Of a DNA stretch of 64,000 bases, positions 9,741 to 64,000 are shown piece by piece. Under the pieces are notes generated by a model, which made no database searches, was not told the DNA's origin, and saw only the letters and a list, made by a program, of their open reading frames with translations. The position numbers and the translations under genes are program-made. Origin of the DNA: a plasmid; sequence record NZ_CP072340.1; one strand, given 5' to 3'. The number at the start of each line of letters is the position of its first letter. The first letter of the stretch is position 1.

Positions 9741-9760
9741 AGCTTATATTAAAGTTACGA

Positions 9761-9795: not shown

Positions 9796-9896
9796 TAAAT
9801 ATTGGATACACCTGCAAAGTGTACCGCGTCTCTCCCCCTGGCAGGCAAGACTCCTCATTCTCTACTCTGCCCAGAGAGGAATAGAAATAAGGCTCC

Positions 9897-39205: not shown

Positions 39206-39233
39206 CAATAGACATATTAAAACTAAAATCATT

Positions 39234-46025: not shown

Positions 46026-46641
46026 AAGCTTAAGTATTCCGGCTGGTAAAGAAAATGGAGATTACATTCTCCAACGAGAATTGCCTAATGGAGCAACACT
46101 CATTCTACTTGCAGATGGGATGGGTGGTTTGTCATTGCCGGAAAGTGCTTCAAAAATTGTTTGCGAAGCTATCTCAGAATATTTCGTAAAAACCGATATA
46201 ATTGATTGTACGGAACATATCCTCAGGAGCATCAAATATGCTGATGAGCGTCTGGCTGCTTTTTGCAAGGAGAAGAAATCCAAGATGGGTGCGGCTTTAC
46301 TTCTTGTATATATCAGTGATGCTATGCTCTTCTACACATCTTTGGGAGATGTGCGCCTATACTATCGAGACAAACAAGGAGAAGTAATTCAACTAACAAA
46401 CGATGATACCATTATGCAAGGAGCAGACACTTATCTGACAGCTTGCATTGCGGGAAGAGGTTTTAGAAACCCCATTCAGGTTCAACGTTTGCCATTGAAT
46501 ATGGGTGATTCTCTGCTGCTTTGTAGTGATGGCTATTACAAAGTTCATGATATTCCCCATTGTTTTCACCATAAAGAGCAGACACCTCCAACATTGGTAG
46601 ATGACGACAGCTCTGTTGTCAGAATAGAAATTATACAATGA
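45982..46641 (+). CDS. PP2C-family Ser/Thr protein phosphatase.
   Basis: Metal-binding PP2C signatures LLADGMGG near the N-terminus and LLLCSDGYYKV near the C-terminus. 219 aa (or 211 aa from the Met at 46006). Confidence 0.7.
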   Translation: MPYLIKFCMVKIQIESLSIPAGKENGDYILQRELPNGATLILLADGMGGLSLPESASKIVCEAISEYFVKTDIIDCTEHILRSIKYADERLAAFCKEKKSKMGAALLLVYISDAMLFYTSLGDVRLYYRDKQGEVIQLTNDDTIMQGADTYLTACIAGRGFRNPIQVQRLPLNMGDSLLLCSDGYYKVHDIPHCFHHKEQTPPTLVDDDSSVVRIEIIQ

Positions 46642-46727: not shown

Positions 46728-48320
46728 CTACATCTTCCACTTTGGTTTTGAGATAATAACTTTGCTCGTAATGTCATTGTTGTCGGATACATTCTGCTGA
46801 CTATTGTTCTTGGGAGATGTGGGCAAAGGTATGTTGTCTGTGTTTTTTGAGAATGAATTCTTATAAGAACGGGGTTCTGATATATCATCTACTGATTTAC
46901 TTTGCTGTATGGCACCATGCTGTGCCTCTTGCCCTATATCCTCTTTTTCCTCCTCCGGTGGAGCAAGGGTAAGTGCAATTCGCCTATCCAGTTCGGCTGC
47001 CTCGCCTTTGAGCGTGCGAAGCTCTTCTTCCTTTTTCCAAGAGCTGCCCGCAATGTTGGTGTAAACGTCTTTATTGGCTGCGACCTTTTCCATCTCCTTT
47101 TCGTGCGACTCTATTACCTTCGGGATACGCTCCAAGGCATTGATAAAGTTCTGGCAAGCAAGTTTCGGATCGGATGCCAGCTTACCGTTATTATAGGTAT
47201 AGTAGATACTCTCCTGCCCCTTCACAAAGAAACGATTTACAGAGCAATCAAACAAGTCCTTGGAAGTGCTCTCCGTCTTAACCATAATAGAAAAGCCATA
47301 AATCTCACCGATTTTGTTGTATTCCCCCTTGGTGCGTGCTTTCTCGTCTATTTCCTGCAGACGTGCAGCAATGGCCTTGATATCGGTGCTGTCTTCCACA
47401 CCTTTGATAGTCAGCTTATTGATAGGCACACCTTCCTCATCACGCTCCACACGCTTCTCAAAGAGAGCCAAGTCAGACTGTGCCTCCTTGACTTTGTCTG
47501 TATGGAAAGACACGGAACTCTCAATCTCTGCCAGCTTGCCCGTTGCGGCATCACGCTCACGGAGAAAGTTCTTGCGCTCTGATTCCAAGGTGGTAATCTT
47601 CTTATCCAATCTTGCTTTTTCCAAAAGGTCGGTATTGCCTGAAAGTACTGCTACATATTCTGAAAAGTTCATACCGCTGTCCTCGTCCATCGATCCCTCG
47701 TCAATGGTACGGCTCCCTAAAGTGTTCGTCTTTAACTGGTTGATGAAAAGCTGCTTGTTGTGCAGCAGGTTGAACTTGTAACTGTCCAACGAGCGTTCCA
47801 CGGCATAAATAATCACATCGACCTTGTTGTCGGCAAACTCCTTGGCAACAAGATTACCTTTACGGATGGCACGCCCGTTACGCTGCTCTAAGTCCGATGG
47901 TCGCCACGGCGTGTCAAGTTGATGGACCGCTACTGCCCGCTGCTGGGCATTCACACCTGTGCCCAACATGGACGTAGAACCGAAGATAATGCGAATATCA
48001 CCACGGTTCATCGCATCTACCATTGCCTTCTTTGCTTTCTCGTTCTTGCACTCCTGAATGAAGCGTATCTCATAAGATGGAATATGATAGTCTTCTACCA
48101 ACTTTCTCTTGATTTCCGAATAGATATTGAAGTCTCCACCAGGCTTGTAAGTACCCAAGTCTGAGAAAACAAACTGCGTTCCTTTCTGTGCATCGTACTT
48201 TTGGTAATAGTCATTGAGCATTTTGGCACAGTGACTTGCCTTGTTGTCGATATGATCTGAGTAAGCATTTTCATCAATCATGCGTAAATCAAGGCTCATC
48301 TTCCTCGCATAATCAGTCAT
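46728..48320 (-). CDS. C-terminal fragment of the CTn N6-methylase/SNF2-family helicase (helicase C domain plus a coiled-coil tail).
   Basis: Helicase motifs IV-VI (IIFGSTSMLGTGVNAQQ, VHQLDTPWRPSDLEQRNGRAIRKGN). The protein begins MTDYARK..., the same six residues with which the 59727.. fragment ends (...[16 protein letters not shown]). Confidence 0.75.
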   Translation of the reverse strand: MTDYARKMSLDLRMIDENAYSDHIDNKASHCAKMLNDYYQKYDAQKGTQFVFSDLGTYKPGGDFNIYSEIKRKLVEDYHIPSYEIRFIQECKNEKAKKAMVDAMNRGDIRIIFGSTSMLGTGVNAQQRAVAVHQLDTPWRPSDLEQRNGRAIRKGNLVAKEFADNKVDVIIYAVERSLDSYKFNLLHNKQLFINQLKTNTLGSRTIDEGSMDEDSGMNFSEYVAVLSGNTDLLEKARLDKKITTLESERKNFLRERDAATGKLAEIESSVSFHTDKVKEAQSDLALFEKRVERDEEGVPINKLTIKGVEDSTDIKAIAARLQEIDEKARTKGEYNKIGEIYGFSIMVKTESTSKDLFDCSVNRFFVKGQESIYYTYNNGKLASDPKLACQNFINALERIPKVIESHEKEMEKVAANKDVYTNIAGSSWKKEEELRTLKGEAAELDRRIALTLAPPEEEKEDIGQEAQHGAIQQSKSVDDISEPRSYKNSFSKNTDNIPLPTSPKNNSQQNVSDNNDITSKVIISKPKWKM

Positions 48321-48610
48321 TAAGAATTAAGGGAAATAGGGGGAAACGCAAGGAATGTAACTATTTGAAATAATATCATTTAGCATTTTCTTACTATTTT
48401 GAGGGTAAGCAAGAACGAGCATCAAACGGCAGGAGTTCCGTTACCAAATCGTAACCCATCAGGGAAAAAGCAAAAAGGGGTTACGAATTGAATGTAAACA
48501 ACTGTGTCATAGGTTTTTATTCTTCATCTTTCATTATTCTGCATCGCTCAGGAATACTTGTTCGTATGTACCTTTGCAAGCAAAGGAAATTTAGAAAAAA
48601 CGACAGAAAA

Positions 48611-49831
48611 ATGAAAGAAAACAAACTCAAAGTATCGTTCTTCGTTCAGGCGAAACGAACCGACAAGAAAGGACTTGTGCCTGTCATTGGGCGAATCTCC
48701 GTTGGCAGAACCCATTCGGGCTTCTCCACCAAGTGTAAGACTCCGCTCGCTCTTTGGGACAGCCGTAAGCAACGGCTCATCGGTAAGAGCAGCATGGCTG
48801 TGTCCGTCAATCAGAAACTCGGCGAATGCACCGCACTTATCCACGCACGCTTTCACGAACTCAGTGAAAGGAAAGAAACTTTCACAGCCACAGACGTGAG
48901 GGATGCCTATCAAGGACAAATCCACCGCCAAACCCTGCTCTTGGAGAGTTTCGGGGAGTATCTCACACAGACAAAGGAGCGCATAGGCATTGATAGAGCT
49001 TTAAAGACATTCAAACTCCGTACCTACCAGCTATCCCTGCTTCGTGAGTATGTGCAGAAGAAGCACAAAGTAAGCGACATTCCACTCTCACAGCTGGACA
49101 AAGCATTTATCGAGGGCTTCGAGTATTATCTCACCATTGACCGAAAGCTGAAACGCAGCAGCGTATCGAGTGCCTTATCCACCTTGCAGACCATCGTCCG
49201 CATGGCGGTAAAGAAAGGTGTGCTGGACTTCTATCCTTTTTTGGGATACAGTTACGAGCGACCAAAGGGTGAACCAAGAAGCATTACGCAGGAAGAACTT
49301 GAGCGCATCATCGAGTTGAAGATTGAATGGGAGAACTATCGTATTGTCCGTGATTTGTTCGTCTTCTCCTGCTTTTCAGGGCTTGCCATCTCCGATGTCC
49401 GCAATCTGAGAGAGGAAAACATTGTCTTGGAAGAAGGCGAACTCTGCATCAAGGGCAGCCGAATGAAGACCAAAACTCCGTATCGTGTACAGGTACTTCC
49501 TCCTGCTTGGGCGATAATGGAGCGTTACAGAGGAAAGCGTGCAGGCTTTGTCTTTGACGTACCGACTACCGACATTATCCTCAATGGCATGCACCACATA
49601 CAGAGAAACATCGGCATGGAAAGTCCGCTGACCTTCCACATGGCTCGGCACACCTTTGCGTCGCTAATCACACTCTCGGCAGGTGTACCTATCGAAACGG
49701 TGAGCCGTATGCTCGGACACACCAACCTGAGAACAACACAGGTATATGCAGCGGTTTCCTCCGAAAGAATCCATCGGGACATGCAGATAGTGCAGCAGCG
49801 CATACAAGATACATTCACCTTAAAACTTTGA
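48611..49831 (+). CDS. Tyrosine-type integrase (IntDOT-like), first of the second tandem pair.
   Basis: MKENKLKVSFFVQAKRTDKKGLVPVIGRISVGR is collinear with the 37976 integrase. C-terminus HMARHTFASL..., LGHTNLRTTQVYAAV. The track start at 48488 is probably too early. Confidence 0.85.
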   Translation: MKENKLKVSFFVQAKRTDKKGLVPVIGRISVGRTHSGFSTKCKTPLALWDSRKQRLIGKSSMAVSVNQKLGECTALIHARFHELSERKETFTATDVRDAYQGQIHRQTLLLESFGEYLTQTKERIGIDRALKTFKLRTYQLSLLREYVQKKHKVSDIPLSQLDKAFIEGFEYYLTIDRKLKRSSVSSALSTLQTIVRMAVKKGVLDFYPFLGYSYERPKGEPRSITQEELERIIELKIEWENYRIVRDLFVFSCFSGLAISDVRNLREENIVLEEGELCIKGSRMKTKTPYRVQVLPPAWAIMERYRGKRAGFVFDVPTTDIILNGMHHIQRNIGMESPLTFHMARHTFASLITLSAGVPIETVSRMLGHTNLRTTQVYAAVSSERIHRDMQIVQQRIQDTFTLKL

Positions 49832-49835
49832 CCTC

Positions 49836-51104
49836 ATGACACGTAGTACATTCAAGACACTCTTTTATATCAATCGCTCCAAAGAGAAAAAGAACGGCAA
49901 ATGCCCGATTATGGGACGCATCACCATAGACGGTGAGCAGGTGCAATACAGCACGGGCAAGGAAATCGCTCCCGAACTTTGGGACAGTCGTAAGGGACGA
50001 TGCAAGGGTATAGGCGAAGAGACAAAGGAAATCAACCGCTATTTACAAAGCAAAGAGGAACAAGCCAAAGCGAAGTATCAAGAATTAGTCTGGCAACGTG
50101 GCTATATTACCGCTGAGTTGCTGAAGCGTGAACTCATGGAAGAAGACAAGCCCAAAGGTTTTCTTATGGAGGAAGCACGACTTTTCATAGAGGAAAAGCG
50201 TCCTTGCGTAGGAATAACGGTAGCCAAGCCGACCTTTGCCAACTACATCTATGCCACACAACTCATTGAGGCTTATTTGCGTGAACGCTTGGGGCTGGAG
50301 GATATTCGCTACTCATCGCTTGACTATGGTTTCATCGAGGGGCTGGACTTCTATCTTAAATCAGAGCGCAAACTCTCCCTTGCCACCATTCAGATTGTTG
50401 TCATTTTCCTGAGGAAACTCATCGGCATAGGTCAGCAGAAGAAGTATATCCGCATCGATCCGTTTGCAGACTACAAAGCAGAACTTCCACACCGCACAAG
50501 ACGTTATCTCACTACGGAGGAACTACAACGAGTATTGCAAACACCCATCATTGACAGACAATTCGAGCGAGCAAGGCAACTATTCCTTTTCTGTGCCTTC
50601 ACCGGTTTGGCTCGTGTAGATATGCAACGGCTCAAACCGAAGCATATCATCTATAATGCTGACGGCACGGCGGAAATCCGCATCAAAAGGCAGAAAACAG
50701 ACGTGGAAGCCATCATTCCACTCCTGCCCATTGCCACGCAAATCCTTTCGCTCTATATCAAGGACAAGAAAGCAGACGACTTGATATTCCCCAATCTCAC
50801 AATAAGGAAAGCATCCTTTGCGTGTGTGAACATCGGGCAGATATGCCGGATAGAGAAAGGCTTGACCTTTCACATGGCTCGCCACACATTCTCAACCACG
50901 ATTTGCCTTTCCAACGGCATCTCAATGGAAACGCTCAGCAAGATGCTCGGACACAGCAATATAGGTACGACACAAATCTACGGAAAGATAACCGACCACA
51001 AGATACAAGAGGATATGACCGCACTCACTGACAGGGAGCATTCTGTATTTGAGGGTTATTGTGAGTCGATAGCACGGCAGAACGTTCCATTGCAACAAGC
51101 ATAA
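49836..51104 (+). CDS. Tyrosine-type integrase, second of the second tandem pair.
   Basis: MTRSTFKTLFYINRSKEKKNGKCPIMGRITIDG is collinear with the 39234 integrase. C-terminus HMARHTFSTT..., LGHSNIGTTQIYGKI. Confidence 0.85.
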   Translation: MTRSTFKTLFYINRSKEKKNGKCPIMGRITIDGEQVQYSTGKEIAPELWDSRKGRCKGIGEETKEINRYLQSKEEQAKAKYQELVWQRGYITAELLKRELMEEDKPKGFLMEEARLFIEEKRPCVGITVAKPTFANYIYATQLIEAYLRERLGLEDIRYSSLDYGFIEGLDFYLKSERKLSLATIQIVVIFLRKLIGIGQQKKYIRIDPFADYKAELPHRTRRYLTTEELQRVLQTPIIDRQFERARQLFLFCAFTGLARVDMQRLKPKHIIYNADGTAEIRIKRQKTDVEAIIPLLPIATQILSLYIKDKKADDLIFPNLTIRKASFACVNIGQICRIEKGLTFHMARHTFSTTICLSNGISMETLSKMLGHSNIGTTQIYGKITDHKIQEDMTALTDREHSVFEGYCESIARQNVPLQQA

Positions 51105-51156
51105 AAAGGAAGTAATTACCAAACATTTATTATTCACGATTGAAAACCAAACGATT

Positions 51157-51624
51157 ATGAAAGAGAACAACAAACAGGAACTTTCTTACTTTCGATTGAA
51201 ATTAAGAAGTTATATGAGTGAGCATCACCCCGAAAAATTGCACGACACGGAGTTTATCACCACACGAGCAGACATGGCTCTCACTGCCTACTGCGATGCT
51301 GTGGCACAAGGTTTTTCGCACCTCGAAGCAGAGAACATAGCAAGTGAGGTGTTGTATCAAGGTTTGCACTTTTCCAAGTACGACACGCTTGTTTCTGTCT
51401 TAGAGAACGAGTTTGAGAGGGAACTGCCTGCACCACTCCCTGAGAAGCTTGCACCCATATTGTTGTCGAATGAGGCTGTTCAAGCCACATTCGACAAGTT
51501 CGGTTTGACGGACACATTTGCTTCTGACGAGCAATACGACCGTCTTTACACCGAACTCACAGGCACGATTGTGCTGCTCATCGAGAGCAATCATTTGCCA
51601 ATAATCGGTCAGACGGAGGGGTAA
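51157..51624 (+). CDS. Conserved hypothetical protein of Bacteroidales integrative elements (DUF1896-like).
   Basis: 155 aa, acidic and helical. The position directly after the integrases is the typical one for DUF1896. The family assignment is from memory of the architecture, not from motif proof. Confidence 0.45.
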   Translation: MKENNKQELSYFRLKLRSYMSEHHPEKLHDTEFITTRADMALTAYCDAVAQGFSHLEAENIASEVLYQGLHFSKYDTLVSVLENEFERELPAPLPEKLAPILLSNEAVQATFDKFGLTDTFASDEQYDRLYTELTGTIVLLIESNHLPIIGQTEG

Positions 51625-51724
51625 GTCCAAAGGCGTTGTAAGCAAAGGCACACGCAAAGTCCCTGATGCCGTTTCTTATCGTGCAAAGGTACAACGGCAG
51701 CTAATCTGCCCTGACAAGGTCAAG

Positions 51725-51770
51725 TCCTGCGGATGGAGAGAAGAATCTCCACCGCAGGATTTTTCTTTTT
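51725..51770 (+). terminator. Rho-independent terminator (stem of about 13 bp, TCCTGCGGATGGAGA / TCTCCACCGCAGGA, plus TTTTTCTTTTT).
   Basis: Read directly. A long GC-rich hairpin with a single bulge is followed by a U-run, downstream of the DUF1896-like gene. Confidence 0.7.
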
Positions 51771-51967
51771 CAAGGTGGTATTGCCATTTTCAATAGCCAT
51801 GCGGTCGTATTCATCTCTCCCAACCTTGCAGAGCAGGGCTGCCGTAGAGAGTATAGGCACGACAAGAATACGGCATACTCAGGCTCTTTGGACGCAAGGC
51901 GTAACAACCAACAACAGATAGGACTGACGATAATACGGACAATCTGTTGTTTGTACAATTTGTTGTC

Positions 51968-52080
51968 ATGACTATCTATTGTCAAAACTATATATCGTCA
52001 AAATAATCTATCGATAAAACTATCTATCGACACTTCGACATCTCGATTTGTCGAACTATCGAATTATCGATAAAACAACA
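51968..52080. repeat. Iteron-like array of ATCGA(T)-core short repeats (TATCGATAAAAC twice, TATCGACAC, ATCTCGATT, TATCGAATTATCGATAAAAC).
   Basis: Read directly. There are at least six ATCGA cores in about 110 bp. TATCGATAAAAC is an exact 12-mer at 52003 and 52062. It lies in the intergenic region upstream of the Xis-like genes of the nested element. Confidence 0.55.
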
Positions 52081-52303
52081 AAATAATAAAAGGAACGAGC
52101 CGGCACCTCATCTCATTACCGCAATAACACAGATGGATCTCCTTTGGTCTTTTCTCTTGTTTTCTCTCTATTTCCCTGCTTATCCTCATTTCTTGCAGCG
52201 GTGCTTCCGAGGGTTTACTTTTGCACTTGATAAGTACGGCAATGGACTGCATAACAGTTTGTTTGCCGAGTAACAATAAAGTAATCAAAACAAAATTAAG
52301 GCA

Positions 52304-52573
52304 ATGAAACTCATTATCATCGACCGCAAAGCGTGGGAGCGACACCACTCCGAATTTGCAGACTTTATCCACAGTATCGAACAACTCATCGGCAATCCGC
52401 CCGAAACGGACGAATGGCTTGACAACGAAGCCGTGTGCAAGCGTTTGGGCATCAGCAAACGTACCCTGCAATCATACAGAGATACGGGGAAAATCCCTTT
52501 CTCAATGATTGGACACAAGTGCTATTACAAGGAGAGCGACATCACGGAGTTACTGAACGCAAACAATGAATGA
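52304..52573 (+). CDS. Xis-like HTH_17 DNA-binding protein.
   Basis: LDNEAVCKRLGISKRTLQSYRDTGKIPFSMIGHKCYYKESDI is an HTH_17 excisionase-type motif. 89 aa. Confidence 0.65.
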   Translation: MKLIIIDRKAWERHHSEFADFIHSIEQLIGNPPETDEWLDNEAVCKRLGISKRTLQSYRDTGKIPFSMIGHKCYYKESDITELLNANNE

Positions 52574-52576
52574 ACT

Positions 52577-52891
52577 ATGACAGAGAACGAAATCATTACA
52601 CAGCAAGCCCCTCAGATGCAGATGTTTGCACAACTGATGGAGGGCATCTTAAAGAAACTGGAGCGTTATTGCGCTACCGCCCGTCCGATGCTGGGCGGAG
52701 AGGTTTACCTCACTGGCGAGGAGGTTTGCAGCCAATTACGGCTCAGCACACGCACGCTCCAAGAGTACAGAAACTTAGGAACACTTCCTTTCTACAAAAT
52801 CGGAGGGAAGATACTTTACAAACAGAGCGACATACAAACAATGCTTGAAAGGCATTATAACGCAATACCCAAGAAATTATGGCAAGAATAG
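52577..52891 (+). CDS. Xis-like HTH_17 DNA-binding protein (second copy).
   Basis: LTGEEVCSQLRLSTRTLQEYRNLGTLPFYKIGGKILYKQSDI is a paralogous HTH_17 motif. 104 aa. Confidence 0.65.
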   Translation: MTENEIITQQAPQMQMFAQLMEGILKKLERYCATARPMLGGEVYLTGEEVCSQLRLSTRTLQEYRNLGTLPFYKIGGKILYKQSDIQTMLERHYNAIPKKLWQE

Positions 52892-53385
52892 ATGAACAAA
52901 GGAAACAGCGTCTGGAACAAGCCCTTCGAGATATGGGCAATTATGGCGTTAAGCTCCGCAAGCCAGAAGAGTTGCCCGATTTTGATCAGCCCATAGATTA
53001 TGAAGAGGAAAAGAAAAGATTTGAGCCTGTTAAAGTTGAGGAACAAAATGACAAGGAGAGTCACAAGGACTATTCTCAACCGTCCAATCAAGAAACAGAG
53101 TTGTCACCAAAGGAAAGGGCTACTTCTACTGAAGAGAATCATCAACGAATGGGAAAAACAAGGGACAGGAAGCAATTATCCGAGTTTCAGGGGAAATATC
53201 TCCAGCCCTTTCGCAACAGCCACCGCAAAGCCGTGTATGTATCAGAGGAAACTCAACGAAAGTTGGACTTCGTGGTGAGGAAAATCGGTGAGCAGGGAGC
53301 AAGCGTTTCAGGATATGTGGAGCAGGTGCTTCGAGAACATCTCGACCAATACAAAGATGATGTGGAAAGATGGCGGAAACTCTGA
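52879..53385 (+). CDS. DUF3408-like conjugative-element protein with a C-terminal ribbon-helix-helix-like segment.
   Basis: 168 aa with a charged low-complexity middle region. C-terminus AVYVSEETQRKLDFVVRKIGEQGASVSGYVEQVLREHL is RHH-like. Confidence 0.45.
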   Translation: MARIDEQRKQRLEQALRDMGNYGVKLRKPEELPDFDQPIDYEEEKKRFEPVKVEEQNDKESHKDYSQPSNQETELSPKERATSTEENHQRMGKTRDRKQLSEFQGKYLQPFRNSHRKAVYVSEETQRKLDFVVRKIGEQGASVSGYVEQVLREHLDQYKDDVERWRKL

Positions 53386-53487
53386 AGTACTGCATTCCTC
53401 GAATGCAAGCCTACGCCGAGTTACTGTATTCAGTGAATGCAGTAACACGGCATGGGCTTATAATCCCATTTTCTACATCAGCAAGGT

Positions 53488-54021
53488 GTGTCTTTGTCCG
53501 ACAAACTACCGTTTGTCCCACAAAAACCCTTGCCCCGAAGGGGATTAAATCACTCCAAAGTCGTGATTAGACAACAAACAAAACAAGTTAAGATTATGCC
53601 TAAATTAGAAATAGCCAACAACAACCGCTACGGTCATCGTAGGATAGAAGAAGTGCCACGCTGGGACAGATGGGACACCCGTATGCCAGATGTGAAAGAC
53701 CAACTGCGAGCCATCGACCTGTACAACAAGTCGGGGGCAGTGAGCAAGTCCGATTTCGTTCGTGCCCGTATCCTTGGAGAGAGATTCAAGGTGATAATGG
53801 TGGATAAGTCCGCAGTTGAGTATTACCGCAAGCTCTCTGAACTCACAGCCCAAGTACATAAGATTGGCATAAACTATAATCAAGTCGTCCGCTTGATGCA
53901 CCTTTATACGGCAGAGAAAAGTGTAAAAGCTTTGTTGCAGGAACTTATCCAACTAACAAAAGAACTCACTACCTTCCAAGAGAAAGCAGTGAGTTTAACC
54001 ATTGACTATCGGGAGAGATAA
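53488..54021 (+). CDS. MobC-family relaxosome accessory (mobilization) protein.
   Basis: The conserved MobC-family motif KIGINYNQVVRLMH corresponds to the G.N.NQ.AR.LN consensus. The probable start is the Met at 53596 (MPKLEIANN...). No relaxase gene follows. Confidence 0.55.
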   Translation: MSLSDKLPFVPQKPLPRRGLNHSKVVIRQQTKQVKIMPKLEIANNNRYGHRRIEEVPRWDRWDTRMPDVKDQLRAIDLYNKSGAVSKSDFVRARILGERFKVIMVDKSAVEYYRKLSELTAQVHKIGINYNQVVRLMHLYTAEKSVKALLQELIQLTKELTTFQEKAVSLTIDYRER

Positions 54022-54037
54022 GGAATGTGCGATGGAA

Positions 54038-54523
54038 TTATATTCCCCCAAGCATTTTTTGCAGCAGATTGCCCGATGTTCGTGTTATTTGGAAGTCTAT
54101 GGTTTGGTTTTCTACTGTTTTTATGTCGGCTGGCTTGAAACGACAAAGGGCTTCCTGACGCTCCAATGTGTCACGGACGGAAGAAAGGTCCTGTATCTGC
54201 CCTGCAAACGTTCCATAGGGAGATTGCAGATAAATCATTTGTCTGTTTACATTGTCGGGGCGTTTATTCTCGAACTTTAATAAGATGGTTATATCTGTGC
54301 TGTCCGCTGGTGTTGCGGTTGTTGCTCCGTGTACGGTAGCCGTTCCCGAATACACTTGTTTATAAGGCAGGAAATAGGCTACGGCTAACAGACAAAGCAA
54401 AACAGCTCCTATGGCAGTAATACCATAACGAACGAGAGATGAGGGTATCTGCCCCACGATGCTGCGTACTTTCTCGCTGCGGAGCTCAAAACTCCGTTCC
54501 TGTTTCTTTTCCTGGTTTTCCAT
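54038..54523 (-). CDS. HlyD-family membrane-fusion/adaptor protein, N-terminal 161-aa fragment (apparently truncated).
   Basis: A cytoplasmic charged N-terminus, one TM (YGITAIGAVLLCLLAVAYFL), then the start of the periplasmic domain. Full-length partners of C39 ABC exporters are about 400 aa or longer. Its start overlaps the ABC gene's stop. Confidence 0.45.
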   Translation of the reverse strand: MENQEKKQERSFELRSEKVRSIVGQIPSSLVRYGITAIGAVLLCLLAVAYFLPYKQVYSGTATVHGATTATPADSTDITILLKFENKRPDNVNRQMIYLQSPYGTFAGQIQDLSSVRDTLERQEALCRFKPADIKTVENQTIDFQITRTSGNLLQKMLGGI

Positions 54524-54524
54524 A

Positions 54525-56738
54525 TCAGTTACCCAATTCTAATTGATTCTTCACTAAGGCAAAATATTTACCACGTTTAGCAGTCAGATCCTCGTGTGTA
54601 CCTACCTCTACAATTTTACCTTCATCCAAAACTACAATTTGGTCGGCATCGCGAACAGTGGAAAGGCGGTGTGCCACTACTACAACTGTTTTTCCCTTGT
54701 AGAACTCCGAGAGGTTTTCTGTAATGGCTCGTTCATTGTTGGCATCGAGGGCATTGGTCGCTTCATCCAGAAAGACAAACATTGGATTCTTATAGACTAC
54801 CCTTGCTATCAAAATGCGTTGTCGTTGTCCCTGACTGATGCCCTGTCCGTCCTGTCCTATCATCGTGTTGTAAGCCAAAGGCAGGGCTTCGATGTAGTCA
54901 GCGATGTTTGCCACACGGGCAGCATGGCGGATACGTTCGATGTCGGGTTCATCATCCGATATGGCAATATTCCTCGCAATGGTATCGGAGAAGAGATACC
55001 CCTCCTGCATTACCGCACCGCATTGGCTTCGCCACCAGCCGAGATTATATTCATTCAGATTGGCACTGCCGACTTGAACGCTTCCTTTCAGAGGTTCATA
55101 GAACCCCAACAAGAGTTTAACGAGTGTGGTCTTTCCGCTTCCACTCGCCCCCACGATTGCGGTTACTTTGCCGTTAGGTATGGAGAGATTGATGTCTGAG
55201 AGAATATCTTTTGGGCTGTAGATGTCGTATTTGAAAGAGAGGTCTTTTATCTTGAGGGAATGTCCCTCAAGTGTTTCGTCAATGTAGGCATTCCGTGTTC
55301 TTTTCGCATTCTCCTCGTTAGTCTCTGTATGAATTTCGTTCATACGGTCAAGGCTGATGCTCACGTCTTGCCAAGAATAGATAAACTGAATGAGCTGTTC
55401 CACGGGGCTGTTGAGCTGTCCAATGATGTACTGCACTGCCAGCATCATACCAAGCGTCATATTGCCTTGTATGACAGAAGTTGCAGCAAAAACGGTAATC
55501 AAGATATTTTTTATCTCGTTGATGGTGATGCTTCCTGCCTGTTGTATTTGCTGAAGATTAAGACTTTGCAGATTGACCTTGAAAAGGTCGGCTTGCACGT
55601 CCTCCCATTCCCAACGCTTGCGCTGCTCACATCCCTGCAACTTGATTTCCTGCATACCACCTATGAGTTGGTAGGTAACGTTGCGGTTTCGCCCTGCCTG
55701 CTCGAAATATTTGTAGTCCAACTGCCTGCGCTTTTTGAGAAAAAGGATAATCCATCCGGCATAAAGCGATGTCCCCGAGAGGAATACAAGGAAGATGCCA
55801 AGATTATAGACTGCAAGGACGACACCGAAGACAAGGAAGGTGAAGAACGAGAATAGCAGGCTCAGACTGCTTGAGGTGAGGAACTGCTCCACACGTCGGT
55901 GGTCTTCAATACGTTGCAAGAGGTCGCCCATCAGTTTGGTGTCGAAGAACTTCATCGGTAGTTTCATCAATTTGATGAAGAAATCCGAGATGAGCGAGAT
56001 ATTGATACGTGTGGAGATGTGCAGGAGTATTTTGGAGCGGATAAAGTCGATGGCGGTACGGCTGAAAAGTAGCATCATTTCTGCCAAGAGCACTAACCAT
56101 ACAAAGCCTATATCCTTTCCTCCTATACCTGTATCAACGATGGCTTGAGTGAGGAAGGGGAAAATGAGTTGCAGGAGCGAGCCGAGCAACAGACCGAGAA
56201 TGAGTTGCGTAAAGAATCTCTTGTACTTTTTGAGATAGTTCCAAAGGAACTTCGCGCGGCTTTGAGTCGGTGCTGTTTCTGTATCGTTTTGAGCATAGAA
56301 CTGTTCTGTCGGTTCAAGAAGAAGGGCGACACCTTTCTCCTCACCGTTGGTCTTAGTACTTACCCAATGCTCGCAGAACTCCTCTTGGGTATAGGAAACA
56401 AGTCCTTTGCCAGGGTCGGCAACATATACGGTATATTTTCCTTTTTTGTGCTTTTTTATTTTATAGACAACAACAAAATGATTTTGATTCCAATGAACAA
56501 TGCAGGGCAAAGGAACTTCAAATGCAAGTGTATCAAAACTTAATCGACCTCCAACAGTCTTGAAACCGATAGTTTCTGCAGCCTTACTGATACCAAGCAA
56601 AGAAACTCCCTCTCGATTTAATGAACAAACTGTTCTAATTGAATCAATATTAAAATCGCGACCATAATGCTTAACTATCATTGCTAAGCAAGAAGGTCCA
56701 CAATCTTTTGCGTCACGTTGTCTAACTAAGGTGTACAT
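54525..56738 (-). CDS. Peptidase C39-domain ABC transporter (double-glycine-leader peptide cleavage/export, SunT/LagD-type).
   Basis: N-terminal C39 peptidase with active-site Cys (QRDAKDCGPSCLAMIVKHYG) and His region (HFVVVYKI). Six-TM ABC exporter domain. Walker A GASGSGKTTL, signature ISQGQRQRILIARV, Walker B MFVFLDEATNALD. Confidence 0.9.
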   Translation of the reverse strand: MYTLVRQRDAKDCGPSCLAMIVKHYGRDFNIDSIRTVCSLNREGVSLLGISKAAETIGFKTVGGRLSFDTLAFEVPLPCIVHWNQNHFVVVYKIKKHKKGKYTVYVADPGKGLVSYTQEEFCEHWVSTKTNGEEKGVALLLEPTEQFYAQNDTETAPTQSRAKFLWNYLKKYKRFFTQLILGLLLGSLLQLIFPFLTQAIVDTGIGGKDIGFVWLVLLAEMMLLFSRTAIDFIRSKILLHISTRINISLISDFFIKLMKLPMKFFDTKLMGDLLQRIEDHRRVEQFLTSSSLSLLFSFFTFLVFGVVLAVYNLGIFLVFLSGTSLYAGWIILFLKKRRQLDYKYFEQAGRNRNVTYQLIGGMQEIKLQGCEQRKRWEWEDVQADLFKVNLQSLNLQQIQQAGSITINEIKNILITVFAATSVIQGNMTLGMMLAVQYIIGQLNSPVEQLIQFIYSWQDVSISLDRMNEIHTETNEENAKRTRNAYIDETLEGHSLKIKDLSFKYDIYSPKDILSDINLSIPNGKVTAIVGASGSGKTTLVKLLLGFYEPLKGSVQVGSANLNEYNLGWWRSQCGAVMQEGYLFSDTIARNIAISDDEPDIERIRHAARVANIADYIEALPLAYNTMIGQDGQGISQGQRQRILIARVVYKNPMFVFLDEATNALDANNERAITENLSEFYKGKTVVVVAHRLSTVRDADQIVVLDEGKIVEVGTHEDLTAKRGKYFALVKNQLELGN

Positions 56739-56804
56739 TTATGATATATAAAACTATACTAAAAATACTATACTAAAGTAAATATTAAATTTGCAAAAAT
56801 ATTA

Positions 56805-59141
56805 TCACTGCAAATTCAATCGTTTCTGATTGCTTTCATTGGTGTTCAATCTTCTAAATGTATCCTTAAATCCATTGAATGTATATTTAATGGTCAGTAA
56901 AAGAAAGCGACTATCGAAATCAGGAGTTGTTTGTACTTTGATATTATCTATGAATACATTTGTTTTTGATATAGATTTATGTAATAAATCGTTACCTCTC
57001 AAGATAATTTGTAAACGATTATCTTTGAAGAAATTTTGCCGTATCCAAAAAGATAAACCATACTTAGGTGATTCCAATACTCCCAAGAAACCATTTTTTG
57101 AAGAGTAAGATAAATCTATAGACGCCATCATTTGCTTAGTAATGTCAAATTGATTGACCAAGGTAAATGCAATATTTGGATTTCTAGGTGCATAAGTATC
57201 TAAGTATTTAATTTTTGTTGGAATATAACGAAATGAAGCATTATAAGCAAATCTATATATACCGAATTTATCTGAATAACTTGCATTAAACAACCATGTA
57301 TTGTAATCTACATTGACGGGAGAATTCAATAGAGCTCCATTTAATTCAGAATTTTCGGTGAACTTCCACAAAACAGCATTAGCGTCATGTATGTATCTTC
57401 CCTGTAAGACAAATTTATTCTTCCATACCATAGATAAGGAATAAATGTATCTATCATTAGATTTAAGAGATGAATTACCTTTTTCATATAAATAAGGATT
57501 TATATAATGCAAAAGAGGGGAAATATCCCTAAACATTGGTCGTGAATTCTGAGTAATAATACTTCCAATGAATAGCAAATCGGGATTTATCTGCCATTGG
57601 GCTGTTATACGAGGAAAGAGTTTAAAGTATGTATCAGTAATACTATTTGTTTTATTTTGCTCATATTCAGAATGAAAAATGCTTCCTCTAACCCCTGCGG
57701 TGATAAAGAGTTTATTCCATTTTTGATTTATAGTTGCAAATAAACTGAGTTCATCATCTTGAAGATTACTCGTTATATTATAGAATGGAGTCGTAGTATT
57801 CTCAAAAATGTAATTTGAATAGCCTTTGTTCAGAATAGAATTTCCTTGAAAGCCCATATTTAGAGAGAAACCCTTTTTCGAGTTGTAGTCGTACTCTATC
57901 TTTGTATTAAATGCGTTATAGTCATTTTTACCATTTATCCAAGAACGGTTTTTACTGTTTGATACTAAATCTATCTCTGATTTTGTTTTAGCGTAGAAAT
58001 AACCGCCAGAAACAGATAGTTGTTGCTTATCTGTCATTGTATAATTTACCAACAAATCGGCATTGGCAGAAATATTACGACTTCTTTCATCTTGATGAGT
58101 GTTGGAATATAGTGTATTCAGACCATATTCATAGTTATACTCATCTCCTTGGGTATTCGCTTTCTTATTGGAGATATTTATATCACCCTGAAATGTTATA
58201 TTAAATTTTTGATTGGGTCTGTAACTGAAACTTTCGACAATATGGTGAGCAGGCTTGGAAAGAATTTCATTATTGTAAGAGATGGAAGACCGTTCCGTTT
58301 TCCCTTTAGGGCTTAATACATCGTATTGATTGGTACCTGTGTTATCTTCATTGAGGTATGAAAAATTATAAGACAATAAATTATCCCATTTCTTTTTTGA
58401 TAAAGAAATTCTCAATACATCCTCTTCTGTATACCGCCGTCCGAACAAAGAATTATGTTCCACCTGAGCAGAAAAGTAATCTGTTAATTGTTGGTTTGTT
58501 GTAATAGAAATAATACAACCATATTGAGCCGAATATTTAGCTGGTGGATAGTAATTAACATTTACCGTTTTTATTTGTTCAGGACGGAGCGTACCGATTC
58601 TATCGTATGATTTTTGTTCTACTCCATTCAATATATACAAAGGTGTGCCTCCTGATATAGGTACAACTCTTCCACCGGTCGCCAACATTCCTGGAAGAAA
58701 AGCAAGAACATCTGCAACTTCGGGTAATTTTTTTAACTCTGATTTTGAGACGTCTATTTCAAATGTTCCTTCTGAAACTTTATAGACTGCTCTTTTTCCT
58801 TTAACTATAACCTCTTGCAACGTGTTGGAATTCGGTTCTAACTGGATAACAGTTGGAAGAGGAATAGAGACTCGTGCTTGTTTATATCCCATAAATCTGA
58901 CAGCAATAAATTTACCATCAGTTCCTTCTTTGCTTATATTGAACACCCCTTTTGAATCAGTTGTTGTACTTTTTAAAATTTCTCCTTCTTCTGTAATTAA
59001 TAGTACGGTGGCATAGGGTAAAGGTTCTTGTACCTCATCAACTACGGTAGCTGATAACATCAATGTATCTTGAGGTACTATTGCTGCTTGAGATTGAAAA
59101 CTGAAAACAGAAATTAAAATTAAAATTAAAACACGAAACAT
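56805..59141 (-). CDS. Outer-membrane beta-barrel protein with an N-terminal CarbopepD_reg-like domain (TonB-dependent-receptor-like) in the peptide-export operon.
   Basis: Signal peptide MFRVLILILISVFSFQSQA. CarbopepD_reg-like fold (LSATVVDEVQEPLPYATVLLITEEGEILKSTTTDSKGVFNI). Plug-like region (ILNGVEQ...). A long beta-rich barrel ends in an aromatic residue. Its architecture parallels the 35003..37558 protein. Confidence 0.7.
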   Translation of the reverse strand: MFRVLILILISVFSFQSQAAIVPQDTLMLSATVVDEVQEPLPYATVLLITEEGEILKSTTTDSKGVFNISKEGTDGKFIAVRFMGYKQARVSIPLPTVIQLEPNSNTLQEVIVKGKRAVYKVSEGTFEIDVSKSELKKLPEVADVLAFLPGMLATGGRVVPISGGTPLYILNGVEQKSYDRIGTLRPEQIKTVNVNYYPPAKYSAQYGCIISITTNQQLTDYFSAQVEHNSLFGRRYTEEDVLRISLSKKKWDNLLSYNFSYLNEDNTGTNQYDVLSPKGKTERSSISYNNEILSKPAHHIVESFSYRPNQKFNITFQGDINISNKKANTQGDEYNYEYGLNTLYSNTHQDERSRNISANADLLVNYTMTDKQQLSVSGGYFYAKTKSEIDLVSNSKNRSWINGKNDYNAFNTKIEYDYNSKKGFSLNMGFQGNSILNKGYSNYIFENTTTPFYNITSNLQDDELSLFATINQKWNKLFITAGVRGSIFHSEYEQNKTNSITDTYFKLFPRITAQWQINPDLLFIGSIITQNSRPMFRDISPLLHYINPYLYEKGNSSLKSNDRYIYSLSMVWKNKFVLQGRYIHDANAVLWKFTENSELNGALLNSPVNVDYNTWLFNASYSDKFGIYRFAYNASFRYIPTKIKYLDTYAPRNPNIAFTLVNQFDITKQMMASIDLSYSSKNGFLGVLESPKYGLSFWIRQNFFKDNRLQIILRGNDLLHKSISKTNVFIDNIKVQTTPDFDSRFLLLTIKYTFNGFKDTFRRLNTNESNQKRLNLQ

Positions 59142-59231
59142 TACAACAAGAAAGTTATAGAGATATAAAGTTGTAAATAAAAATAAAATGTCTGACTATG
59201 AACGAAAGAGCATAGTCAGACACAGAAACTC

Positions 59232-59408
59232 TTAAGGCTTTGTTGTTACTCTGTCAATGATGACAGTCCCATCATCCTTAATCGTTGTTGTAATGGTGGT
59301 TGTTGAACCATCTGCATTGATAATGGTTTTAGTTGCAGTTACATCACCGCCACCATTGATAAAACCCATTTCGTCTTTTGAAAAGACTTCTAAAGCTAAT
59401 GCTTTCAT
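59232..59408 (-). CDS. Double-glycine-leader peptide precursor (58 aa). Leader MKALALEVFSKDEMGFINGG, then a Thr/Ile-rich 38-aa core.
   Basis: Hand-translated from the minus strand: MKALALEVFSKDEMGFINGGGDVTATKTIINADGSTTTITTTIKDDGTVIIDRVTTKP. It fits the GG-leader consensus (E/D-L..-..I.GG). It is the first gene of the operon with the C39 ABC exporter. It is under 60 aa, so the ORF track missed it. Confidence 0.65.
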   Translation of the reverse strand: MKALALEVFSKDEMGFINGGGDVTATKTIINADGSTTTITTTIKDDGTVIIDRVTTKP

Positions 59409-59726
59409 AACTAAATAGAATAAAGTTTATACTTGGCTCGGTATTCTCCGAACCGTTAATTAAAATTTGGATGTCAGAGTTTCGCACGATGTGCATATTA
59501 ACAGACATTCAATTGCAATATTACGAAAAGAAAACGAGAAAAACAAATTTTTCGCCACGTTTTTTGCGATTTCCATTATTTTGTGTCGTTTTTCATAATG
59601 AAATGACTATCTTTGCAACTATAAATTAAGTGTTCATTGAAGCATTGCAAAATAAAGAAAGGGAAAGAAACTCGCTCGTTTCCATCTCGTAACCCATTTA
59701 CCCTTTATTCATTCTTATTTTATTGA

Positions 59727-62700
59727 TTATCTGAAAGATACAATATTCTTGAATCTTTTACGGGCGTAATCCGTTGCGATGAGCATTTTTGCCCTTCCCT
59801 CGCTCTCACTCAGAGGTGCTCGTCCCAAGATTGTGGCATCTCCACTCTTGGCAAACTCCATCAACTTGCCGATAAAAACCTCCTGCTCGGGCGTGGGCGG
59901 TATGTTATGCAGTATCTCGTTCTTCTCGGGGCGGTCGATACCGATGTCCTTGGCTGTGCGAAAGTCGCAAATCTCCGCATAGAACGAGGCAAGCTCCGGC
60001 ACTTTGATAAAGGTGCGGAACCGCTCTTTCTGAATGATGTCGTTTGTGATGGAGAACTCATAGTCAGTTGATTTCTTGGCAAAGACTGCTGCCCAAGCAT
60101 CAAAACTGTTGATACCCTGTTTTTCTAATGCCTGCGGACGGAGATACTTGAACAGAAGATACAACTCCGTCAGGCTATTGGAAATGGTCGTTCCCGAAAG
60201 GAAAGTGGCTCCCAAATCCTTGCCGGACCTCTCCTGTATGGTACGAATAGCAAAGAGCATGTTTAAGGCACGCTGTGAACCATCAGGATTACCCAAGCCC
60301 GACACACGGTCGTGGCGGGTATTGAACATCAGGTTCTTGAATTGATGGCTTTCATCTACAAAGAGGTGGTCGATACCCATCATCTTGAAGTCTACAGCAT
60401 CGTCCTTTCTTTCGGCGATGCTGTCCTGTATGTTCTGCAACTTGGCTTCAAGCGTCTGCTTGCGTTTTTCCAGTCCTTTGAGCATGCCACGGGAGATGTC
60501 TCTTCCTTGTTGCCGCAACACTTCGAGATTTTCTTCCACGGAGTCCAGTTCCTTTTGCATAATCGCCTCCTGTATCTCGAAGGCCTGCGGTATCATGCCG
60601 AACTGTTCATGCGTAAGTATTATGCAGTCCCAGTCGTTGTTCTTGATGTCGTTGAAAATGCGTTGTCTGTTCTGCTTGTTGAAATCATTCTTGCCCGGAT
60701 ATAAGATCCTCGCATTGGGATAAGCCTTTCTAAAGGTGTCGGCAATGTCAAAGACGTTTGCCTTCAGTCCGATAATCATTGGCTTGTTTGCCAGTCCCAA
60801 TCGCTTCATCTCGTAGGCTGCCGTACACATGATGAGTGTCTTGCCCGCCCCCACCTCGTGATCACAGATGCCTCCTCCATTGGTCTTCAGCATCCATACG
60901 GCATCCTTCTGGCTCTTGTAGAGGTCGGCAATGCCCAACCGTTTGAGGTCAAGGTCGGGAAAAGTCTGATGTGTGCCGTCAAAGTTCGGTCGCACAAAAC
61001 AGTTGAAAAGGCGGTTGTACCTGTCGGAGAGTTGTTGTTTGAAGGTATCGGGTGTGCGTCCGAGCCAATCGACAAAGCCCTGTCTGATTTCCTCAATCTT
61101 GGCATTCGCCATCTGGATGGCATGTCCGTCCCTTACTTTGATGGTCTTGGTCTCTCCCGTAACCTTGTCCGTCACTTCCTTGCTCTTGTTGATGTCGGGA
61201 ATGGTATTGTGCAGGGCATGCTTTAAGAGATTGATACCGTCATAGCGGCGGAACTCACCCTGTACGGCATACTTGTGCCAGATATTGGCATTCTTATGGT
61301 CACATACAATGCTGTACTCGTCCATGTTGGAATGGTAGGATACACCAATATCCGTCCCGAAAAACTCCGAGGCAAACCTGCCATAGACTTTGGCAGGTAT
61401 CCAGCGTTCACCGAGATTAAAGTCAAGGTCTGCAAATGGAATGGGTGTTGGCGTGGCTGCACGCAAAGCGGCAAGGCTCTGTTTGGCTTCCTCATGGTCT
61501 GGATGGTCCAAGAGCCACGACTCGATACGCTCCGCCTTTTCTATTACATTGCCCGAAATGAACTTGTCCGCCACTTCGTAGGCATTCTCTTCGGGATTGT
61601 AATAGATGCGACCTTCCAAGGAAGAAATGATGTCGCTTTCCTCCATATCAGGTAAAAGCGAACTCATGTAGTCAAGTTCCACCGCGCCGTACTTGTTGAG
61701 CGATGCACCCAGTGCCTCCATCGGGTCTGCGGCAACGGTCAGTTCCGTGGTGGAAAATGCCGTAGGATGGTCAAAGATGTCCGCCTTGATGTACCTGCCG
61801 TTCTCGGAGCGTTCCAAGAACAGCATTTCCACGCCTGTAGCATCCATCTTGATGATGTCGGTGTTAGCCTTTTGGTTAAAGTAGCCCCAGCGTGCAACAT
61901 AATCATCATACAGGTGGTTGAGTCTGCTGCGGTCCTCCTTGTCTTCTGCATGGTTCTCTGCCTCGTAGTCATAGAGACGATGATAGCACTCCCGTATCTC
62001 GATATAGCTTTTTAGTCGGGAAAGCTGCGCATACGGCAAGTCCATCGGATTAAAGGTCGGATGTCGCTTTAAGTCAGAAAGAAACCCCACCTGCCCTTTC
62101 TGCACGACAATGGAGCCGTCTCTTAAGTGGGAGTCCGGCGATGAGAGAAAGGGACGGGGTGAGGAATCAAACTCCTTTTTCACCTCCGCTATCGGTTGTG
62201 GTTTTCGCTCTTCGGCTTCATTCATGAAGTCAAAGAGAGATGGCTCACGATATGAGGGGGAGATGATCTTCTTATTGCCCTTTCCTCTGGTTTTACGCCC
62301 TGGAGTGACTGTAGGTTGTTTTTCGCTCTCCTTTCCTGCTTTGTTTTCCGGTTGCTTTTGAGCTGTCTGCACCTGCGATTTTGGAGCTTCTTTAATCTCG
62401 CTGTTCACGCGCGTTACTTCCTGCGTCCAGAGATTGTATTCCTCCGGAGCGAACAGTGAAGGCTGCTCCGTTTCCTGTCGCTCGTCCATGCCGTTCATCA
62501 CCGGATGATGGTCATCGTCGAAATAGACCATCTGTCCGTTCATCTCCCGTGGAGACTCCACATCGGTACGGATTTCCTTCACATCCTGCTCATACTGACG
62601 GTGAAGAGTCAATGTAGGCACGCCTTCAGGAGCAGGCTCATAGGAAATGTGGTCGATAGCCTGCACGATTTGCCTATTAGCCTTTTCCCTGACTTGCTCC

Positions 62701-64000
62701 CCAGCCTTTTCTACTTGAACTTCCTCCTTGTCCTCTTCCGTGGAGAGCTTCTCCTCCATTGGCTGAGCCAGAACTGTCGGCTCGGCTTTTTTCTTGATTT
62801 CCTCAATAATCGGCTCCTTGGTGTATTGTCCTTGGACAATCTCCTCCAGTTCTGCAATCTCGTGCAGTTTCTTGGGGCTAAAATATAAGTCTCGCTCAAT
62901 GCCTAACCCATGTATCTTGACTTCCTCCATTTCGTCAAGCGACATATTGCCCAGTTCCCAACCATAGCCCATCGTGACAGCACCGAAACCGATGCGGGTC
63001 TTCGGGTCGTACTCCAAGAGGTAGGCCGTATATGCCCCCATCGGGAAGAAATAGCGTGCGTAGGCTATTTTATCGCCAATGAGTTCCTTCTCCGTGCTGT
63101 ATAGTTTGGGCAATTGTTTCCTGATGCTGTCGGGCATGAGATTATAGGCGTTATCCGCCTCCTTGTCCGTTTTTGGCTCCTCGTTGGGCAAATCAACCGT
63201 TATACCCAACTTCTGCAGTTGTTTCTCCACTTCTTTCTGTCGTTCCTCTTCCGTCATCGGTATGCCAGTTTCATAGAGCTTTCGGTCAAAGCGTTGCTCA
63301 AATTCCAAGGAGAGTTGTGTTCTGATACTCTCCGCCATATCATCAATGCTGCCATCGAAGCGATACTCCCATGCAGGTTTGCCGTATGGGTCCCTGCCCA
63401 TCGTGCGTTCCGTGGCAATGGTGCGGTGGGCTATGTCCTTCCATTCACCATCAAAGAGCGAGTTGTGCTTGAATACGACAGAGGAACCTTCGGCTATGGG
63501 AACAGACACAGAAGCTACGAACTGCTGTTCGATGCCCTCGCCGATGGTCTTGCCCGACTGCTTTTGCAGGACGATGAGGTCGCTGCCGACTTCCGTTCCT
63601 GCATTCTCAGAGAACATACCCGACGGCAGGCGGAGAGCGGAGATAAGCCGGCTGTTCTGCATCAGATAACGGCGGATGGCTTCGTTCTTCGGGCTGTCCA
63701 GCACACCCTGCGAGGTGATGAATGCCATCAGCCCACCTTCTTTAATGCAGTCCAGCCCCTTTACAAAGAAGTAATTGTGGATGGCTCGTGTGGATTCGCG
63801 TTTGAGAATGTCCTTGCCCTTGCTGTACTCCCGGTCATAGACCATGAAATCACCAAAGGGAATGTTACTTGTTATAAGGTCGTACTTGTCCTTGTCCTCC
63901 AACTCTCCGATGGCTTCAAAGGGGGCTTGGCGGACTATGATGTTGCCTTGTCCATAAGGATGAATGGCTTGTGAGATACGGGCAGTGAGCAGGTCTTTCT
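59727..64000 (-). CDS. N-terminal part (partial) of the CTn N6-adenine DNA methyltransferase / SNF2-family helicase (N-terminal helicase motifs).
   Basis: Methyltransferase motif IV-like LITSNIPFG is near the window edge, so the ORF surely continues past 64000. SNF2/DEAH motifs [14 protein letters not shown] and [11 protein letters not shown]. It ends ...[16 protein letters not shown] at 59727. The C-terminal half is at 46728..48320. Confidence 0.75.

Follow-up and report, generated by a model that had tools for sequence, protein, structure and literature searches.

An element with tandem tyrosine integrases is inserted at a precise site in the methylase/helicase gene of a probable conjugative transposon of Bacteroidota

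Introduction

IntDOT of CTnDOT is a Bacteroidota tyrosine integrase with an N-terminal arm-binding domain, which tolerates non-identical bases between its cleavage sites, allowing the two junctions to differ; CTnDOT has one integrase and the core GTANNTTTGC. Here we describe a stretch of 64,000 nucleotides (sequence record NZ_CP072340.1; "the window" below refers to this whole stretch), in which a methylase/SNF2-helicase gene is divided by an 11.4-kb element, referred to as the inner element. At one end this element carries two tyrosine integrase genes, int1 and int2, whose products, like IntDOT, are composed of Arm-DNA-bind_5, Phage_int_SAM_5 and Phage_integrase domains.

Several described systems are close to this arrangement. 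MTnPi1-3 of Prevotella intermedia are mobilizable elements of 16-18 kb with tandem tyrosine integrases, a relaxase and a primase, whose circles were detected by PCR and whose att core is the 11-bp TTAC/TTGC-N5-AA (Naito et al. 2016, PMC4755523). The same authors reported "no putative att sequences" for the internal integrases of CTnPi2 and CTnPi3, and suspected MTn-like insertions there. Their gene list for CTnPi3 runs DUF1814/AbiEii, PP2C phosphatase, helicase-C protein, integrase, DUF1896, HTH, HTH and continues, further on, with integrase, integrase, putative DNA methylase, topoisomerase and DUF3945 (PMC4755523). In streptococci, integrative mobilizable elements (IMEs) with serine recombinases, IME_Spy2096_SNF2 and IME_SsuT15_SNF2, disrupt the snf2 gene of integrative conjugative elements (ICEs) of the Tn5252 superfamily (Coluzzi et al. 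2017, PMC5357655). In gut Bacteroidales, disruption of the methylase-helicase gene mhgA of a GA1 ICE goes together with the co-residence of a second ICE type (PMC8102008). Apart from the latter paper, literature searches on bacteroidetocin-type mobile elements and on the names bmhA/mhgA yielded no useful report, and no publication defining the ends or the target of the inner element was found.

The inner element resembles MTnPi1-3 in having two dissimilar tandem tyrosine integrases at one end, HTH_17 genes and accessory cargo. The att core of MTnPi1-3 has fixed outer bases and a variable middle, and in the inner element TTAY-N6-AA lies within an 18-bp match. Unlike MTnPi1-3, however, it is devoid of relaxase and primase, its ends differ from the published ones, and its target is the methylase/helicase gene, whereas MTnPi1-3 are found in "hypothetical protein" genes with the flank AAAAGCGGCT.... 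Like the streptococcal IMEs, it is a small element residing site-specifically in the SNF2 gene of a larger element, here regarded as conjugative by synteny, and probably travelling inside its host. Those IMEs, in contrast, use a single serine recombinase (Ser_3) and target snf2 in Firmicutes, whereas the inner element has two tyrosine recombinases, belongs to Bacteroidota and targets a fused methylase-helicase gene. Thus, the inner element works like MTnPi1-3 and the streptococcal IMEs but is a member of neither: it is set apart from the former by the missing relaxase and primase and by its different core and ends, and from the latter by the type of recombinase. With integrases of its own, att-derived 18-bp repeats at its ends and no type IV secretion system (T4SS) module, it shares these three features with IMEs. 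The gene order of CTnPi3, compared by gene list, is that of the window, and the study of CTnPi2 and CTnPi3 also mentions ABC-transporter and outer-membrane-receptor cargo, as seen in the inner element; relative to that study, the present analysis adds where the element ends, what its 18-bp core is, which gene it targets and how it is distributed over genera.

Results

The interrupted methylase/helicase gene

The gene is encoded on the minus strand. Its N-terminal part extends from 59727 to beyond 64000, where the frame is still open, with the 5' end outside the window; a start at 63902 is not borne out. This part (59727-64000) contains an N6_Mtase/Eco57I domain (Pfam) with methylase motif IV (SNIPFG), followed by helicase motifs I-III, including Walker A (GAGKT) and DESH, and is truncated by the insertion, such that its final nine codons (RFKNIVSFR) and the stop are element DNA. 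The C-terminal part (46728-48320, minus strand) begins MTDYARKMSLDL with an element-borne ATG, a longer reading of its start being MTDYARKMSLDLRMIDE, and encodes a Helicase_C domain with motifs IV-VI (motif VI, QRNGRAIRKG). A native Met codon is present seven codons downstream of this start in every interrupted copy. The break accordingly separates the two RecA-like lobes, with motif III on one side of it and motif IV on the other. The original prediction, made from the DNA alone, had recognized methyltransferase motif IV and helicase motifs I-II in the open reading frame (ORF) ending at 59727 and motifs IV-VI in the one starting at 48320 with MTDYARK, and had read them as one gene cut by a nested integrase-bearing element; the ORFs and their motifs are confirmed, and homologue and junction alignments support this reading.

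To collect homologues, we joined 400 residues from each side of the break via a single TDYARK. The joined query retrieved 3,698 homologues (E ≤ 1e-30), and 119 of the best 120 span the break, reading MLIAT[D/N][Y/M]ARKM[S/A]LD across it. The gene is therefore normally in one piece, and the concern raised at the outset, that the helicase might naturally be encoded by two genes, did not materialize. Among the loci examined, none was found in which the two halves abut without an insert.

Junctions and the 18-bp core

Each junction carries an 18-bp stretch encoding TDYARK on the minus strand. The upstream copy, ACGGATTACGCCCGTAAA (59757-59774), joins the 5' part of the gene to the right end of the element, and the downstream copy, ACTGATTATGCGAGGAAG (48300-48317), joins the left end to the 3' part of the gene. 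With codons ACG GAT TAC GCC CGT AAA in the former and ACT GAT TAT GCG AGG AAG in the latter, the copies differ at six of 18 positions, all synonymous. They are spaced by 11,457 bp, and the element-only DNA lies at ~48318-59756. The earlier observation that the two ORFs share TDYARK in partially identical DNA thus stands, but the shared stretch amounts to 18 bp rather than 11.

We compared the flanks with two uninterrupted loci, L001 (on a 274-kb NCBI contig) and L002. The window up to 48317 aligns to L001 from 7858 onwards, the window from 59761 onwards aligns to L001 up to 7871, and L002 behaves likewise. Both flanks match the same loci with 85-89% identity, the two alignments have 12-14 bp of the uninterrupted sequence in common, and zero flanking bases are lost. 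Since both flanks align gaplessly to L001 and L002, the interruption is exact, and deleting the insert together with one 18-bp core copy (11,457 bp) restores a single reading frame. Alignment of an uninterrupted homologue over the junctions had been suggested as a check; it favours insertion, with precise boundaries at both flanks.

Junctions of related copies (see below) made it possible to deduce the attachment site. At the helicase site the left junctions read ...TTTCCCTTAATTCTTA-NNN-ACTGATTATGCCCGC-AAGATGAGC..., corresponding to xTDYARKMSLD. In the 10 readable right junctions, helicase and non-helicase alike, the element part starts (T)GCCCGCAAAAGATTCAAGA...GTATCTTTCAGATAATCAAT. The element's own site is thus approximately ...TTTCCCTTAATTCTTA-NNN-ACTGATTATGCCCGCAAAAGATTCAAGAAT... 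and resembles the target ACNGAYTAYGCCCGCAAGATGAG over 17-19 bp; combining left and right junctions, the attachment site is ~ACTGATTATGCCCGCAAAAGATTC on the element versus ACNGAYTAYGCCCGCAAGATGAG in the gene. Junctions of L041 share ATTATGCCCGCA, those of L047 share GATTNTG only, and these shared stretches place strand exchange between GATTAY and AAR. The middle hexamer of the core varies among junctions, and GCGAGG adjoins the non-helicase flank in L062. The heterology of the core copies hints at a recombinase that tolerates mismatches between its cleavage sites, and heterologous coupling sequences at the two junctions, as initially supposed, are plausible.

The triplet preceding the core varies by element lineage. 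Roughly half of the copies have ATG at this position, the others GCT, ACA, ACT, CCT or ATA. The start codon of the C-terminal half in the window is thus an accident of lineage. The idea that the element-borne ATG is an adaptation keeping this half expressed was rejected as a rule on the same grounds. A target-site duplication generated by a transposase was rejected as well, both because the core copies differ at six positions and because the element-borne core halves are kept at unrelated sites. Scans of 37000-64000 for tRNA genes and Rfam families found nothing, meaning that neither the inner nor the outer element is located in an RNA gene.

Recurrence of the target and independent spread

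A search with int1, limited to one genome per species, yielded 71 related loci, most of them with 88-97% protein identity, in Prevotella, Segatella, Hoylesella, Hallella, Alloprevotella, Porphyromonas and Phocaeicola. Relatives are present in more than 40 genomes of the Prevotella group and Porphyromonas, often in several copies per genome, and the nesting is seen repeatedly in Bacteroidales of the mouth, vagina and gut. Among the 59 left junctions that could be read, 40 are at the exact TDYARK site of the helicase gene; the remaining 19 are bordered by unrelated flanking DNA, with ACTGATTATGC retained before the sequences diverge. The same two element ends recur in about 60 loci, 40 of which are at this site, and the insert is consequently a recurrent unit. 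Its size ranges from ~5 to 11.4 kb and its cargo is variable between copies, on a constant backbone of int1, int2, DUF1896, two HTH_17 proteins, DUF3408 and a MobA-like protein.

For 23 loci we measured the identity of both the element and its flank to the window. The integrase region is 87-92% identical in all but two loci (range 73-93%), the helicase flank is 72-89% identical, and the two values are uncorrelated (r=0.13). Uncorrelated divergence of element and flank, together with variable cargo and size, indicates independent movement. Such a pattern is that of a mobile unit which has entered diverged alleles of one target time and again, not that of an inherited fixed arrangement.

The same neighbourhood receives other elements too. 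The helicase gene contains a second insertion site ~220 bp away from TDYARK, corresponding to ~59960-59990 of the window (codons ...SFYAEICDF). A different tandem-integrase element, oppositely oriented and with a related end (AAAAGTAATAGAAG...), was found there in other genomes, namely in L024 (~19690-19840), L033 (~20927-21076), L056 (2973) and L065 (3954); in L024 and L033 both sites in the helicase gene are occupied together. A third related family, with int1 ~70% identical, was found at L049, L056, L065, L074 and L075. Its left junction is TCTATGAACTATCCCCGC, it keeps the conserved block corresponding to 48409-48620, and it sits at the start of a ~385-aa gene (MNYPRTGSRYISEDVFEEV...) just upstream of the methylase/helicase gene. 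The methylase/helicase neighbourhood looks like a hot spot for tandem-integrase elements.

In Segatella buccae (L012) two convergent helicase copies, one uninterrupted and one interrupted by the element, are located ~6 kb apart (2101-3141 and 9290-10010), which suggests adjacent or nested host elements. The left-junction flank of a metagenome-assembled genome of Parabacteroides (L064) holds GGGACTCGAACCCGCG, resembling the 3' part of a tRNA gene, and some relatives may use tRNA-adjacent secondary sites.

Conserved motifs at the element ends

The original prediction pointed to an 11-bp direct repeat near 48449 and 59687 and an 8-bp inverted repeat at the left end. Both copies of the 11-mer TCGTAACCCAT are present (48449-48459 and 59687-59697), as is the inverted copy GGGTTACG at 48478-48485; the chance probability of ~0.02 attached to them greatly understated the support. 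Within the 64-kb window CGTAACCC occurs three times, at 48450, inverted at 48478 and at 59688, each time within the element ends, and it is conserved family-wide. The block at 48425-48500 (plus strand), which contains CGTTACC, CGTAACCC (48450-48457) and GGGTTACG, is the best-conserved part of the left end (≥95% in 64 loci, a set that includes a divergent group with an integrase only ~70% identical). The conserved right end (59630-59756, plus strand) contains CGTAACCC at 59688-59695, kept in 10/10 right ends, and terminates with ...TTGATTATCTGAAAGATACAATATTCTTGAATCTTTT. Judging from position and conservation, CGTAACCC-type motifs are likely to be arm-type or accessory sites.

In addition, TAnnTTTG motifs, which we take to match the -7 promoter consensus of Bacteroidetes, are located on the plus strand at 48570-48577, ~35 bp upstream of int1, and at 59608-59615. 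The latter is kept in all right ends and faces outwards over the junction; in the integrated form it would be antisense to the truncated host gene, and in a circular form it would be directed towards int1.

Gene content of the inner element

Within the element-only DNA (48318-59756), as delimited by flank alignments and the junctions of relatives, the genes of the left part lie on the plus strand. They comprise int1 (48611-49831), int2 (49836-51104), the DUF1896 backbone gene (51157-51624), two adjacent HTH_17 excisionase-like genes (52304-52573 and 52577-52891), a DUF3408 gene (52879-53385) and a gene for a MobC_2/Bacteroides MobA-like relaxosome accessory protein (53596-54021), after which there is no relaxase gene. 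The MobA-like protein scores 95.8 bits, below the NCBIfam cut-off of 150. Xis-like and MobC genes had been noted inside the insert, and the HTH_17 pair and the MobC_2/MobA-like gene answer to these. Int1 and Int2 share 30% identity, and the C-terminal HxxRH...LGH...Y motifs are preserved in each of them. They had been called paralogous to the outer pair (37976-40511) and are indeed homologous to it, but only distantly (26-33% identity). No relaxase was seen in the inner element or in eight related copies, and no tra-like (T4SS) gene among all ORFs of the 11.4-kb insert.

The right part of the element is cargo. On the minus strand it encodes a 161-aa membrane protein (54038-54523), a C39-peptidase ABC exporter (54525-56738), an outer-membrane beta-barrel protein (56805-59141) and a 58-aa peptide with a double-glycine leader (MKALALEVFSKDEMGFINGG / GD...) and a Thr-rich core (59232-59408). 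This operon (54038-59408) has the make-up of a bacteriocin-like export cluster. Over the stretches compared, the element region is identical to contig ADGJ01000069.1 (GCA_000336235.1).

Outer element and surroundings

The outer element, to which the interrupted gene belongs, is probably a conjugative transposon, judging from its gene-order synteny with CTnPi3 of P. intermedia; this label rests on the synteny, since no tra genes for it are in view within the window. Its left end (37629-37705, core 37676-37686), upstream of the outer integrases, reads TTTTCGTTGATTAG-TTAC-ACATC-AA-AAGCGGCTCTTTTG on the reverse strand and matches the published attR of MTnPi1 at 33/39 bases, flank included. The outer element thus has an integration module of the MTnPi1 type and the same conserved target sequence. 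It also has a Toprim/AAA_25 primase-like gene, and the neighbours of the helicase gene in L001 (HTH_3, a 126-aa gene, a 686-aa Toprim/AAA_25 gene, HTH_17 and AbiE) match the window at 40.6-46 kb. Between the primase-like and helicase genes, at 44192-46641 (plus strand), there is an AbiEi/AbiEii toxin-antitoxin pair with a PP2C phosphatase; this slot is variable between loci, that of L001 holding AbiEii and DUF6577. In the chromosomal part of the window, two large BspA-type leucine-rich-repeat proteins (10131-16405) are consistent with an oral Prevotella-like host.

Discussion

The explanation that we favour, with a probability of about 90%, is that an 11.4-kb integrative and probably mobilizable element was inserted site-specifically, by tyrosine recombinase, into an 18-bp core in the helicase gene. 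The target would be the conserved TDYARK-coding stretch between the helicase lobes of a gene that belongs to a larger transferable element. As the site on the inner element resembles this target, integration would leave a core copy flanking each end, both still encoding TDYARK, and the six synonymous differences would reflect the incoming site versus the resident allele. Int1 and Int2 probably act together, with the two HTH_17 proteins as likely excision factors. The host gene is cut in two and most likely inactivated. Having neither relaxase nor mating apparatus, the inner element could be carried along by the host element or could use the host relaxase after excision. What the sequences show is the insertion with its exact ends, the repeated use of one target and a spread independent of the flanks, whereas the roles given to motifs and proteins, excision, the way of transfer and the loss of host-gene function are inferred. 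The joint of a circular form would read ...CCCTTAATTCTTA-NNN-ACNGATTAYGC...AAAAGATTCAAG....

Several observations weigh against this explanation. No circular form and no empty site in the same strain were seen. A search for the end-to-end joint pattern in JGI metagenome contigs gave a single match, L077, which was rejected as a circle: its neighbours are genes for succinyl-CoA synthetase and formate-tetrahydrofolate ligase, and no more than 67 bp of the left end are present, as expected for an insertion beside an old end remnant. Free copies of the element were looked for in plasmid records, with only two partial matches of chromosomal type. No relaxase or oriT was identified in the element, so that its being mobilizable is something we infer. 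Differences at 6/18 positions between the core copies could hinder excision by a homology-dependent recombinase. Finally, the C-terminal halves are intact in 30 of the 36 copies from other genomes that are readable to the stop; this is in keeping with recent insertion and is no proof of function, but it is also compatible with retained function.

Some of these observations would suit an element that was inserted as described and has since become a fixed, immobile cargo island, a passenger of its host element: no relaxase in any family member examined, imperfectly matching cores, no circular junction, and no att sites found by Naito et al. for the internal integrases of CTnPi2 and CTnPi3. We regard such immobility as fairly unlikely, given that this copy has two intact integrase genes and two intact ends, that members of the family have inserted independently many times and reach several copies in a genome, and that the related MTnPi1-3 excise constitutively. 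Another possibility is that the host gene stays functional, the element supplying a stop, a start and perhaps a promoter, with the two lobes cooperating as separate polypeptides. The position of the break between the RecA-like lobes, the ATG or native Met codon on offer and the predominance of intact C-terminal halves would be in line with this. However, the ATG is not conserved, no promoter reading from the left end towards the C-terminal half was identified, a recent insertion would leave intact ORFs just as well, and the analogous streptococcal snf2 insertions are described as gene disruptions (PMC5357655), which together make a split but working helicase distinctly improbable.

It is still harder to account for the locus without insertion. 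If the two halves derived from two copies of the gene, brought together through tandem or rearranged host elements, TDYARK would represent coding homology and not an att site, as might be read from the codon differences between the TDYARK copies and from the S. buccae locus with uninterrupted and interrupted copies within 7 kb. Yet the sequence on the inner side of the junctions is not helicase-like, all family members have the same pair of element ends, both flanks match the same uninterrupted loci with similar identity, and the same ends border non-helicase DNA in 19 loci; a two-copy origin is thus highly improbable. We give practically no credence to gene fission, that is, to a helicase naturally encoded by two genes in this lineage with ordinary accessory DNA in between. 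Both halves are intact ORFs, the downstream one with an ATG, and most C-terminal halves elsewhere are intact too, but nearly all of the best homologues are continuous, adjacent halves with nothing between them were not found at any locus, roughly every second copy lacks the ATG, and the DNA between the halves carries integrases, is bounded by conserved ends and is found at unrelated sites as well.

As far as we know, the attachment sites of such an element have been worked out here for the first time. Internal integrases of the CTnPi2/CTnPi3 type had no known att sites, a gap that is filled here by defining both ends, the target gene and the 18-bp core. The finding also reveals a convergence, as unrelated recombinases in Firmicutes and Bacteroidota both land in the SNF2 helicase gene of conjugative elements. 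For annotation it means that a "Helicase-related protein, partial" and a "DNA methylase, partial" with integrases between them represent one interrupted gene.

In this way, peptide-export systems, restriction systems and similar cargo can pass between different host elements. One may further speculate, although we consider it quite unlikely, that the inner element is a dedicated hitch-hiker of Bacteroidota conjugative elements, whose att site mimics a coding motif of the host and which alters host behaviour by switching the gene off and on. If so, insertion may lift the exclusion of other conjugative elements, as could be envisaged by comparison with the similarly built mhgA (PMC8102008), and the gene region would be a landing pad shared by at least three related families of tandem-integrase elements.

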